15,956 nucleotides of DNA from a virus (Duplodnaviria; Heunggongvirae; Uroviricota; Caudoviricetes), in IMG/VR virus record IMGVR_UViG_2778261418_000011, positions 1-15,956 of that record. The stretch is one strand, 5' to 3'. Both the position numbers and the translations under genes were made by a program. The notes under the pieces were generated by a model. It saw only the letters and a program-made list of their open reading frames with translations, ran no database searches and had not been told where the DNA came from. Below are positions 3,922 to 15,956 of the stretch, one piece after another. Within the stretch, counting starts at the first letter, position 1; the number at the start of each line of letters is the position of its first letter.

Positions 3922-3943
3922 AAAAAAAACCGCCGAAGCGGTT
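3922..3943 (-). terminator. Putative intrinsic terminator/attenuator between T and the tape measure gene
   Basis: Minus strand reads AACCGC-UUCG-GCGGUU followed by a U-run (plus-strand A8 at 3922-3929): a 6-bp stem with a UUCG tetraloop and U-tract, immediately upstream of the tape measure RBS. Confidence 0.35.
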
Positions 3944-5361: not shown

Positions 5362-5382
5362 AAAAAAAACCGCCAGCGGCGG
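5362..5382 (-). terminator. Putative intrinsic terminator/attenuator upstream of the major tail gene
   Basis: Minus strand reads CCGCC-GCU-GGCGG followed by U8 (plus-strand A8 at 5362-5369), between the stop of the upstream gene (5405) and the V RBS. Confidence 0.35.
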
Positions 5383-13473: not shown

Positions 13474-13656
13474 TCAGTTCTGCAGACACTGCCGAACACC
13501 GTCAACAATTTCGCAGACCTGAGAAGCCGTATCGAAAAGCTGGCGCGCCTTATCCAGGCTGACGCATCCCACCAATAAAAAAGGCACCAGTATCGCTACC
13601 AGTGCCCATTTCGCCGCCGTTCGCGGCATTCTGTGTGTCCAGTGTTTTCGCGCCAT
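13474..13656 (-). CDS. Small putative lipoprotein (60 aa; lipobox LVGC, ~30-aa mature peptide with 3 Cys)
   Basis: MARKHWTHRMPRTAAKWALVAILVPFLLVGCVSLDKARQLFDTASQVCEIVDGVRQCLQN has a basic n-region, a hydrophobic h-region and an L-V-G-C lipobox. Its start lies 1 nt after the stop of the upstream 37-aa ORF. Confidence 0.45.
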   Translation of the reverse strand: MARKHWTHRMPRTAAKWALVAILVPFLLVGCVSLDKARQLFDTASQVCEIVDGVRQCLQN

Positions 13657-13903: not shown

Positions 13904-14287
13904 TTATCGCTTCAGCTGAAAGTGAGGTCCGTCTTTCAGCGTTTTCCAGTCCCCGCCCCATTCGATAGCGATCCCCAGCTCTGCGGCAGCCTGCTTAAAT
14001 GCCTGTGCGATTTTCTCGTACAGAGGCCACTCCCATGACACCTGGCTGCCGATGTAGGCCACAACATCCACCGCATCACCGGTCAGGTGGCGGCTGTTCA
14101 TGGTCTGGCTTTTCCCTTCCGCAACCAGCTGTTTCTGGCGATACTTACTGCGCAGGCCTTCCGTAATACCGAAATCAACCTCCGTCAGCTCCAGCGCACG
14201 GCGAACTACAGCAACCAGCTGTGGTTTGACACCCTCCAGATTTTTTTCACTGCGACGGCTGAATCTGAATTTACCCGGCATATTCAC
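13904..14287 (-). CDS. Endolysin, peptidase M15 family (L-alanyl-D-glutamate peptidase type), no signal-anchor
   Basis: 127-aa ORF with the metal-ligand pattern ...SRHLTGDAVDV... and ...DGPHFQL, typical of M15 zinc peptidase endolysins as I recall. Hydrophilic N-terminus. ATGA overlap with the upstream holin-like gene. Confidence 0.8.
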   Translation of the reverse strand: MNMPGKFRFSRRSEKNLEGVKPQLVAVVRRALELTEVDFGITEGLRSKYRQKQLVAEGKSQTMNSRHLTGDAVDVVAYIGSQVSWEWPLYEKIAQAFKQAAAELGIAIEWGGDWKTLKDGPHFQLKR

Positions 14288-14559
14288 CTCAACAATGGAA
14301 AGATTTTTGTGACGTTCCCGCGTGCGCGTATCACCAGCACGCAGAACAGCAGGTTAAAAAACACTTCCAGCCAGCCCGTTGCTAACGGGCGACCACACAG
14401 ATAGCTGAGGGGCGCAAAGGCATACAGCAGCATCAGCAGCCAGGCCAGCCATGACATCAGCGGTTTATGTCTGGAATCACGGCGACGATAAAAAAAGAGC
14501 GTCAGCACGATAACCGTGCATAACGCCACATTCAGCAATCCGGGAAGGTTACTTAACAT
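14284..14559 (-). CDS. Holin-like membrane protein B (91 aa, about three transmembrane helices); possible holin or antiholin
   Basis: Track ORF 14284..14613. The likely start is the ATG at 14559 (MLSNLPGLLNVALCTVIVLTLFFY...), with GGAGGAGG at 5-nt spacing. It lies directly upstream of the endolysin. Confidence 0.55.
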   Translation of the reverse strand: MLSNLPGLLNVALCTVIVLTLFFYRRRDSRHKPLMSWLAWLLMLLYAFAPLSYLCGRPLATGWLEVFFNLLFCVLVIRARGNVTKIFPLLR

Positions 14560-14941
14560 TGCCGCCTCCTCCACCCCGCAGGCGGGAAAACAGGACGGAC
14601 ACCAGCGATGCAATATCCTGTTGGTGGATAAACGACAGAATCTTTACCGACACCACCGATACCAGCACCGCACACAGTGCATCCGCCGATGTACCGTCAT
14701 AACCTGTTTTTGCTGCAATCCAGGCTGACAGCACGCGCGCTCCCAGCACGCCGACAATGAACGACACCAGAAAATGTGCCGCCACCCGCCAGGCTGAAAG
14801 CGCCTGCGGCATCGTTGCCACAAACAACGCTCCGGCGAACGCCCCAAACACAATCCCGAAATCCGTCCCGGTAAACAGTCCGAATACCGTCGCCCCGCCG
14901 AGCGCAGCGGCTGTACCAGAACCGGATAAGGGTTCAGACAT
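14549..14941 (-). CDS. Holin-like membrane protein A (130 aa, several Gly/Ala-rich transmembrane helices)
   Basis: First gene of the lysis cassette, with GGAG 8 nt upstream of the ATG. Its Gly-rich C-terminus (RLRGGGGGNVK) is encoded by the SD of the next gene. Confidence 0.6.
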   Translation of the reverse strand: MSEPLSGSGTAAALGGATVFGLFTGTDFGIVFGAFAGALFVATMPQALSAWRVAAHFLVSFIVGVLGARVLSAWIAAKTGYDGTSADALCAVLVSVVSVKILSFIHQQDIASLVSVLFSRLRGGGGGNVK

Positions 14942-15183
14942 ACTTTTTCTCCTGTAAAGAAAAAAGGGCCACCAGCAGCCCGCAAAAAAACGCCCACCAA
15001 AGGCACCCGCAGATGCCTTTGGTGTGGAGTTATTTGATGTGCGCCGGTCGTGGCGCGAGGAAGTGAAATAAGACTTACCTGAAATTAAGGTTAATCTTAT
15101 GGTTTAAACCATTTTTAATGCTTAGTAATATGAACTCGTCCCCAGAAGGGGCCAATACTTATTCTTCTTCACGGACTTTGTCC

Positions 15184-15215
15184 CGCGGCGTTAATCCGAC
15201 AGCCGCGCTTTTTTT
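15184..15215 (+). terminator. Plus-strand-oriented terminator-like hairpin
   Basis: CGCGGC (15184-15189), 12-nt loop, GCCGCG (15202-15207), then C and T7 (15209-15215). Confidence 0.4.
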
Positions 15216-15250
15216 GCGCCATATTCATCGCTGACTTATATGGCATTGCC

Positions 15251-15286
15251 ACACGGACATTATCAGTGTCCGTGTTTTCTTTTTTT
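15251..15286 (+). terminator. Plus-strand-oriented intrinsic terminator
   Basis: Perfect 9-bp stem ACACGGACA / TGTCCGTGT with a 7-nt loop, followed by TTTCTTTTTTT. Confidence 0.55.
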
Positions 15287-15297
15287 GAATTCAGAAT

Positions 15298-15324
15298 AAA
15301 AAAAACCGCCCAATGGAGGCGGTT
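15298..15324 (-). terminator. Minus-strand intrinsic terminator between the tRNA array and the lysis cassette
   Basis: Minus strand reads AACCGCC-UCCAUUG-GGCGGUU followed by U8 (plus-strand A8 at 15298-15305). Confidence 0.6.
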
Positions 15325-15688
15325 GGTCAATGCATGAGATCAATCATTTTTATTGTAATAGAAATCGAGGTGTCGGGTGCCTCCCGAAATATCCATCCCT
15401 ACAACAGATATTGTGATTCCCCGTTAAACCACTATATAAACCACCCTCGCACTGAGGAACACCTCTGCGGTGCTGTTTACAACACCAGAATGATGCTTCA
15501 CCGACCCTGCCAGGAAATACAAAATCTCCACCGATAATGCATCATTCTGCTGCCGTAAAAATTCAGCACTGAGGCTACACCCGACCTCAAATCATAGCCA
15601 GAGAACAGAATACCATTTAAACACAATCCGCTCCCACGTAATAAAAAATACGCCAGTGCTGTAATACAATAAGGCTTATTACAAATGT

Positions 15689-15763
<75 letters not shown>

Positions 15764-15766
15764 ATA

Positions 15767-15842
<76 letters not shown>

Positions 15843-15844
15843 AC

Positions 15845-15921
15845 TGGACCGCCACCGGGGACTCGAACCTCGCACACTTAACTTAAAGGGTTGACGCTCT
15901 TTCCTGATGAGCTAGTGGCGA
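15845..15921 (-). pseudogene. Degenerate tRNA-like gene (possible decayed tRNA-Arg-like member of the array)
   Basis: A 77-nt cloverleaf can be drawn (acceptor stem with U1-G72, D-arm GCUC/GAGC, T-loop UUCGAGU, encoded CCA). However the anticodon loop is CCUUUAA (C where U33 is normally invariant), and there are A-C mismatches in the anticodon and T stems. Confidence 0.4.
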
Positions 15922-15922
15922 T

Positions 15923-15956
15923 TGGTGGCCCTTGCTGGATTTGAACCAGCGACCTG
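15923..15956 (-). tRNA. tRNA 3' fragment (T-arm and acceptor end; resembles E. coli ileX-type tRNA-Ile2), truncated by the window edge
   Basis: Reverse complement ...GGTCGCTGGTTCAAATCCAGCAAGGGCCACCA gives a T-stem GCUGG/CCAGC, T-loop UUCAAAU, acceptor 3' strand and CCA. The anticodon is outside the window. Confidence 0.5.

Follow-up and report, generated by a model that had tools for sequence, protein, structure and literature searches.

Tandem terminator-like hairpins, conserved in sequence and pairing, precede the holin gene of a phiP27-like Escherichia coli prophage

The DNA analysed here (15,956 nucleotides, hereafter the window) contains, immediately upstream from its first lysis gene, two hairpins followed by runs of U residues, HP1 with U7 and HP2 with U6. 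We consider it probable that these are tandem intrinsic (Rho-independent) terminators, which would stop Q-independent transcription before the holin gene and let Q-modified polymerase through. The two hairpins are conserved in sequence and in pairing, they are distributed among prophages as a module, they lie far from the late regulator gene Q and they have counterparts at the same position in other prophages. The window belongs to an E. coli lambdoid prophage that is phiP27-like and mosaic; none of the loci compared matches it as the same phage along its full length. Its late genes are carried by the minus strand. The features referred to in the text are as follows.

15956..15689, minus strand: clustered tRNA genes for Gly, Thr and Lys, with just the 3′ end of a fourth (Ile in the related locus L001), from tRNA calls
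15324..15304, minus strand: upstream sense terminator, 8-bp stem and U8, at the end of a weak STnc100/PasD-like match
15056..15041, minus strand: HP0, small GC hairpin (GCGCC-ACGACC-GGCGC), -10.1 kcal/mol, z -2.8
14995..15024, minus strand: HP1, 13-bp hairpin with a UGCG loop, from folding, terminator scan and pairing conservation
14990..14984, minus strand: U7 tract of HP1, after a GGCG spacer (14994-14991)
14981..14966, minus strand: HP2, 5-6 bp GC-rich hairpin (GGGCU-GCUGGU-GGCCC), from terminator scan, folding and pairing in 34 variants
14965..14960, minus strand: U6 tract of HP2, directly after the stem
14953..14939, minus strand: Shine-Dalgarno sequence of the holin gene (AGGAG, 14953-14949) and its ATG (14941-14939), from the sequence
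14941..14549, minus strand: first lysis gene, 130-aa holin, PF16931 (Phage_holin_8), from ORF and Pfam analysis
14559..14284, minus strand: second holin, PF05449, coordinates transferred from the L001 annotation
14281..13904, minus strand: endolysin, M15 peptidase, PF13539, coordinates transferred from the L001 annotation
13607..13582, 5382..5370 and 3943..3928, minus strand: sense terminator-like sites inside the late operon, from the consensus scan

HP1 is made of 13 contiguous pairs between a 5′ arm at 15024-15012 (CACCAAAGGCAUC) and a 3′ arm at 15007-14995, closed by the UGCG loop (15011-15008). Two extra pairs (CC/GG) extend the stem beyond a one-base bulge, and additional pairs between an A-tract and the U-tract can carry it as far as ~15035 and ~14984. 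The U7 tract thus lies 2 nt from the extended stem and 4 nt from the perfect stem. Folded alone, HP1 has an energy of -25.8 kcal/mol (z = -5.83), and none of 200 shuffled sequences folded equally well. Among the terminator-like sites listed by the consensus scan for the whole ~16-kb window HP1 ranked at the top, its 13 pairs being the most listed for any site, and its sequence occurs just once in the window. Six terminator-like sites, HP1 and HP2 included, were flagged between positions 14000 and 15956, versus 2.3 ± 1.5 in shuffled sequences. In most relatives the stem of HP1 comes in two parts, 9 bp on the inside (AAAGGCAUC/GGUGCCUUU) and AACACC/GGUGUU on the outside, with a 5x5 internal loop between them; the outer part abuts the U-tract, with which an upstream A-tract is also able to pair; the sequence of the loop and stem is near-invariant across these relatives. 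With its 2-4 nt spacer in the window and the 5x5 internal loop in the relatives, HP1 is not a textbook terminator.

A GC dinucleotide separates the U7 tract from HP2 on the minus strand. In HP2, positions 14981-14977 pair with 14970-14966 (GGGCU/GGCCC) around a loop at 14976-14971. Its folding energy, -8.4 kcal/mol (z = -0.81), was equalled in 44 of 200 shuffles and is within what is expected by chance; it is the shape of HP2 and its conservation that carry weight. Only 6 nt (CUUUAC) lie between the end of its U-tract and the Shine-Dalgarno sequence, which is 12 nt from the end of the stem. A promoter would not fit between HP2 and the holin gene, so that every holin transcript must cross both hairpins. 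The original prediction had described a structured leader directly ahead of the first lysis gene, and both hairpins are indeed found there on the minus strand, including the weaker GGGC...GCCC hairpin whose U6 runs into the holin ribosome-binding site. As to HP1, its strand, place and U7 had been correctly identified; the stem, given as 9 bp, comprises 13, and the spacer to the U-tract, given as 6 nt, measures 2 to 4.

Among 87 related holin loci, both hairpins are retained in 65, whose sequences fall into 32 distinct variants. A search of genome contigs with the holin as query gave five loci, a number insufficient for statistics, and these were used as distant comparisons. In a 34-row alignment of distinct variants, 96.5% of the cells predicted to pair do so, as compared to 47-55% after a shift of the 3′ partners by 1-3 columns. 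Pairs changed on both sides number 8, against 1.6 ± 1.1 in shuffled alignments (0 of 500 reaching 8), most of them contributed by one or two divergent rows (L004 and L066), so that the independent events are few. Compensatory changes include an A-U to G-C replacement in L086 and a C-G to U-A replacement in L003; in a Salmonella locus (L004) a largely re-written HP1-like stem surrounds the same loop. HP2 is paired in 98.8% of cells across the 34 variants, and the changes that it has undergone are solely of the wobble type (G-C to G-U and C-G to U-G). Shared ancestry would explain part of this conservation, the remaining variants being close relatives. At the sequence level, HP1-HP2 show the traits by which intrinsic terminators are recognised: a stable GC-containing hairpin (weak in the case of HP2), an adjacent U-tract (0-2 nt from the stem) and maintained pairing.

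Terminators unrelated in sequence occupy the same position in other prophages. Two sense terminators, ending ~55 nt before the class II holin gene, are found in prophage PP2 of EPEC strain E2348/69; a single, different sense terminator lies ~110 nt before essD in the DLP12 prophage of strain K-12, the region before essD lacking the HP1-HP2 element. One and two sense terminators precede the holin genes of an Enterobacter and a Leclercia prophage, respectively, whose holins are 43-48% identical to that of the window. Like the module, these terminators are situated 50-110 nt before the first lysis gene, in the same orientation and often in tandem; unlike it in sequence, they are analogues in position and presumed function rather than homologues. 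Counter-examples exist as well. In one group of loci (L011) the holin is 98-99% identical, the module is absent and two co-directional ORFs reach the holin gene; no terminator was seen near the holin in this group. The Salmonella locus keeps the HP1-like hairpin and has neither the U-tract nor HP2, which makes a role other than termination possible for HP1.

HP1-HP2 most likely terminate transcription, yield to Q-modified polymerase and insulate the holin gene. In lambdoid phages, Q loads at the pR′ promoter and renders RNA polymerase resistant to downstream terminators. In a lysogen, Q-independent transcripts originating from tRNA, sRNA or accessory-gene promoters, or from leakage past tR′, would enter the region from upstream and would be stopped first by the 15324..15304 terminator and next by HP1 and HP2, so that the holin gene would stay silent. 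The tRNA cluster is a likely source of such transcription, and the 15324..15304 hairpin would be an additional barrier between the tRNAs and the holin gene. For Stx phages, expression of the phage tRNAs during lysogeny has been traced to a promoter located downstream of tR′ (PMC7547250). Following induction, Q would load onto polymerase at pR′, a site beyond the window and over 1.6 kb upstream, and the resulting terminator-resistant polymerase would pass HP1-HP2 and the other internal terminators (13607..13582, 5382..5370 and 3943..3928) into the lysis and structural genes. Q-modified polymerase has been found to ignore downstream terminators (PMC7547250). Since all holin transcription crosses two terminators, we propose that lysis would be strictly Q-dependent.

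Elements of this general kind are known from the internal or accessory ("moron") terminators of lambdoid late operons, which also consist of sense hairpins and U-tracts placed inside the Q-dependent late unit. They are found at the 3′ end of accessory genes (DUF3927 and TerB; the stx2e region in phiP27), before the lysis genes, and are expected to stop Q-independent transcripts only. The stx1AB genes, "bookended" by a terminator and an sRNA, provide an example of internal late-operon terminators (PMC7547250). The module differs from these in being a specific ~85-nt tandem which persists without accessory genes, as in the window, and which is common to two unrelated holin families. It is an ordinary kind of element, of which we found no description in this particular version in the literature searched; papers on the Stx2e holin, on the comparison of pR′ regions and on the Q-S region do not discuss terminators before this holin.

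The hairpins might also be viewed, chiefly, as the 3′ end of an Hfq-binding regulatory sRNA, in the manner of StxS, PasA/PasC or AgvB. The species in question, ~85-110 nt in length, would comprise HP0, the A/U-rich linker and the HP1 terminator with its U7, and would be made in lysogens through termination or processing of upstream transcripts, or as the 3′ UTR of the DUF3927 mRNA. We regard this as unlikely. The architecture fits, with a hairpin, a single-stranded A/U-rich stretch (the A-rich linker between HP0 and HP1 reads CAUCAAAUAAC) and a stable terminator with at least 7 U. The near-invariance of the HP1 loop and stem points in the same direction, as does a neighbourhood which, in lambdoid prophages, is rich in Hfq-bound sRNAs: StxS originates from pR′-tR′ (PMC7547250), PasD and STnc100 are reported in a 2026 preprint to be related prophage sRNAs encoded downstream of Q (bioRxiv 10.64898/2026.05.13.724894), and PasA/PasC adjoin the holin-lysozyme operon (bioRxiv 10.64898/2026.05.13.724894; PMC8550237). 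The Pas, AgvB, AsxR and STnc100 sRNAs resemble the module in lying between Q or accessory genes and the holin, and in possessing a terminator hairpin with a long U-tract, the typical Hfq-binding end. Against such a reading, no Rfam family rises above noise on the element. At gathering thresholds the tRNAs alone match in the whole window; an E-value scan of positions 14850-15720 gave the element noise only (suhB/mmgR with 22.9 bits versus a gathering score of 41, MIR477 and anti-hemB), with no match on it for models of AgvB, AsxR, Esr41, STnc100 or StxS-like RNAs. No sequence or covariance-model match links the module to PasA/PasC of EPEC, PasD/STnc100 or AgvB/AsxR of EHEC, the Pas sequences having been compared by eye. 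The conserved block begins at or just before HP0 or HP1, so that no conserved promoter exists within the module, a difference from the prophage sRNAs, and PasA/PasC are antisense to the late genes. Direct homology of HP0-HP2 to PasA, PasC or PasD was considered and rejected, no similarity being apparent by eye with the E2348/69 PP2 sequence and PasA being antisense.

Production of an sRNA is in any event compatible with a terminator role and would constitute an addition to it rather than an alternative. In its strongest form, which we likewise hold to be doubtful, the proposal is that HP0-HP1-HP2 release in lysogens an abundant Hfq-binding RNA, ending at the U-tract of HP1 or HP2 and regulating host or prophage genes; tRNA, sRNA or DUF3927 transcripts could be its source. 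In a related scenario, a factor might recognise the near-invariant HP1 loop and set the amount of late transcription that reaches the holin gene. Were the sRNA proposal true, ~10% of E. coli genomes would also possess an antitermination by-product sRNA of the StxS kind on the distal side of the accessory region, next to the lysis genes.

A post-transcriptional action of the hairpins on the lysis mRNA, as a processing or stability element or through translational control, seems improbable to us. The hairpins would either provide a protected 5′ end or allow the HP2 U-tract, paired with the Shine-Dalgarno sequence of the holin gene, to adjust how much holin is made and when lysis occurs. The U6CUUU tail of HP2 can in fact pair with the Shine-Dalgarno region GGAGAAAAAG (14942-14965, minus strand; ten pairs, G-U included), and this pairing over the Shine-Dalgarno sequence appears both in the minimum-energy fold of the 121-nt region and in the consensus fold; the Salmonella relative, with its HP1-like hairpin devoid of a U-tract, is likewise in line with a post-transcriptional role. 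However, the helix consists of weak A-U and G-U pairs, as base composition predicts, its sole C-G pair is lost in most relatives (C to A), and the pairing is absent where the module precedes a P21-type holin gene. The helix is probably a base-composition effect, and a translational switch built on it was discarded on these grounds. The hairpin that exerts "sdi" control over the lambda S gene overlaps the Shine-Dalgarno sequence or the start of a dual-start holin gene. Here the holin starts with MSEPL, without a Met-Lys/Arg-Met dual-start motif of the sdi-controlled kind, and HP2 ends upstream of the Shine-Dalgarno sequence.

Returning to the terminator interpretation, the distribution of HP1-HP2 among prophages shows them to be a discrete ~85-nt module, situated where a variable cargo slot meets the lysis cassette. 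Among relatives, the slot contains a methylase gene, tRNAs, sRNA-like RNAs, the TerB-DUF3927 pair or toxin genes such as stx2e. In most loci the homology with the window sets in at 15034-15068, shortly before HP1 on its 5′ side, whatever the upstream cargo, and the DNA between the tRNAs and this starting point varies from 0.2 to 3.4 kb; in one family of relatives the conserved module has HP0 as its left edge. HP0 shows a compensatory change in L026 (GCGCU...AGCGC). Loci of the L017 type (L017, 3190-3910) have a ~665-nt insert between HP0 and HP1 which carries TerB (PF05099) and DUF3927 (PF13064); the latter is a 50-aa gene, preceded by the TerB-like gene, and its stop codon falls inside the A-tract of HP1. 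In many relatives, where the DUF3927 stop abuts HP1, the module would then also end an accessory transcription unit. The TerB-DUF3927 pair is absent from the window (15033-15044) and the module is present nonetheless. A remnant alone of the DUF3927 gene is left in phiP27, and in another group of relatives HP1 is lost and the terB leader is fused to HP2. Short similar sequences (GCGCA-ATC-AATAAC) at both junctions of the insert suggest that TerB-DUF3927 was gained or lost through recombination at microhomology.

The module is equally separable from the genes on its right. A pattern of the two hairpin cores matches 119 viral contigs, 90 of which have a holin of the MSEPLSG.. type (PF16931-like) or a near variant; in 28 the module leads into an unrelated holin of the P21 type (PF04971), joined immediately behind the HP2 U-tract, and one is without an ORF call. 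Two Q families, PF06323 and PF06530, accompany the module. The 119-nt element is present in 532 of 5,426 complete E. coli genomes, in up to six copies, and none of the matches listed bears an annotation for the module itself, the overlapping features being neighbouring or hypothetical ORFs. We find it very improbable that such a module is a functionless linker, conserved merely through recombination between mosaic lambdoid prophages. Homology junctions do lie on both of its edges and short similar sequences do flank the TerB-DUF3927 insertion or deletion; but pairing has been kept through wobble and compensatory changes, and a passive linker would not predict unrelated terminators at the same position elsewhere.

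The position of Q relative to the hairpins was deduced for the window's prophage from L001, an E. coli chromosomal locus that shares 99.5% identity with the window along 1,457 nt from the tRNAs to the holin gene, and from other relatives. In L001, Q (PF06323) ends 2.7 kb before the holin gene, the order being RusA, Q, a 65-aa ORF, a DNA methyltransferase gene, tRNAs Ile/Lys/Thr/Gly, ~750 nt of non-coding DNA and the holin gene. Similarly, phiP27 (L002) has Q (PF06530), two ORFs, a methylase gene, tRNAs, stx2e, the same hairpins and the holin gene. A Q homologue was detected by tblastn in the 4-6 kb upstream flank of 18 of the 87 holin loci, and in all 18 it ends 1.6-5 kb before the holin gene. 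Directly 3′ of the L001 Q stop codon lies TTGCAA-17-TACATT, which we read as a promoter candidate and which scores under the scan threshold, then a ~60-nt leader and a hairpin, GCCCGC-CGCUGA-GCGGGU, with U7. This region looks like a pR′-leader-tR′ unit. Counting its tR′-like hairpin, five sense terminators separate Q from the holin gene in L001. In the window, the ~750-nt non-coding gap between the tRNAs and the holin gene contains, besides the module, one further sense terminator and two terminators on the opposite strand. A consensus scan, which weak promoters may escape, found no promoter-like site from tRNA-Gly to the holin ATG; the single promoter match between 14000 and 15956 falls inside the tRNA genes.

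A lambdoid late leader (pR′-qut-tR′) lies directly downstream of Q, with a sigma-70 promoter ~50-260 nt before the terminator. HP1-HP2 are neither adjacent to Q nor, by the consensus scan, close to such a promoter. They share with the pR′-6S RNA-tR′ unit of lambda, and with its StxS version in Stx phages, a hairpin and U-tract in the path of the late genes that would block them until Q acts, and constitutive termination at such a site can yield a short stable RNA; they differ from it in being located 1.6-5 kb downstream of Q, with no promoter or Q-binding/pause elements upstream, unlike the leader-like element of L001, which directly follows Q. That HP1-HP2 might nonetheless be the tR′-type terminator of a short late leader, with pR′ and a Q-loading site just upstream, is suggested by their resemblance to lambda tR′ ahead of late genes and is hardly credible given that Q is distant in every relative where it was found, that L001 has a separate promoter-like site, leader and hairpin with U7 directly after Q, that the consensus scan is negative from tRNA-Gly to the holin ATG, that a methylase gene, tRNAs and accessory genes intervene and that in many relatives a coding gene (DUF3927) reaches up to HP1. 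Rather, the remote Q, the intervening genes and the lack of a promoter-like site indicate that HP1-HP2 would be distal internal terminators at the boundary between cargo and lysis genes, and they are reasonably viewed as overcome only through antitermination. The original prediction had likened the hairpins to a short leader and terminator under antitermination control. Their terminator shape and their location on the sense strand of a lambdoid late operon agree with this proposal; the short-leader arrangement does not hold, Q being 2.7 kb away in L001 with its own candidate promoter, leader and hairpin. The late regulator had also been expected beyond coordinate 15956, as borne out by the place of Q in L001 and in the other relatives.

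Tandem terminators at this boundary would explain how transcribed tRNA, sRNA and accessory or toxin genes can reside a few hundred bases upstream from a lethal holin gene without killing the host. The same module precedes the gene for the holin on which fluoroquinolone-induced release of Stx2e depends in porcine STEC (PMC12571312), and the strength of the module could therefore influence toxin release. The module also constitutes a compact and common landmark for the right-hand edge of the cargo slot in these prophages.

Several features of the related loci deserve mention. For the phiP27 holin gene L28 (L002, 5739-6107) the annotation puts the start inside HP2, 42 nt before the conserved ATG; this start, which makes the gene run through HP2, is probably wrong. 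ORF L27 of phiP27, on the opposite strand, overlaps the DUF3927 remnant and is probably spurious. In phage SerU-LTIIb (L088, 1122-4127) a unit made of two tRNAs, a spacer, HP1/HP2 and the holin gene occurs as a tandem duplication; in its first copy HP1/HP2 are degenerate, and the holin gene is followed by no more than a fragment of the second holin gene. The LT-IIb toxin genes of this phage come after the endolysin gene, outside the cargo slot that precedes the holin gene. Four loci (L020, L045, L062 and L052) have four or five sense hairpins stacked in ~230 nt before the holin gene, in the order STnc100-like terminator, GCUCGC-UACG-GCGAGC with U5, HP0, HP1 and HP2.

Within the window, the late-operon site at 13607..13582 comes after the lysis genes, and those at 5382..5370 and 3943..3928 are within the structural gene block; terminator-like sites so distributed along the operon fit a need for processive antitermination throughout. 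The tRNA-Lys(UUU) gene (15845-15921, minus strand) scores 31.9 bits with the Rfam tRNA model versus 64-66 bits for its neighbours and may specify a divergent phage tRNA. A weak full-length Rfam match to STnc100 was obtained at 15294-15493 on the minus strand (E 0.098; 19 bits, with gathering set at 47); the 15324..15304 terminator and its U8 form the end of this match, which may represent a divergent member of the PasD/STnc100 group. The block 15033-15221 is the best-conserved part of the tRNA-holin spacer, with 86-91% identity in nine loci. Two terminator-like hairpins with U-tracts are found on the plus strand, at 15184-15215 and 15251-15285, one being CGCGGC...GCCGCG with U7, the other having a stem of 11 bp (z -4.4) and, after it, UUUUCUUUUUUU. 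The conserved block may encode one or more antisense sRNAs, in a position and orientation like those of PasA/PasC and with no similarity to them by eye.
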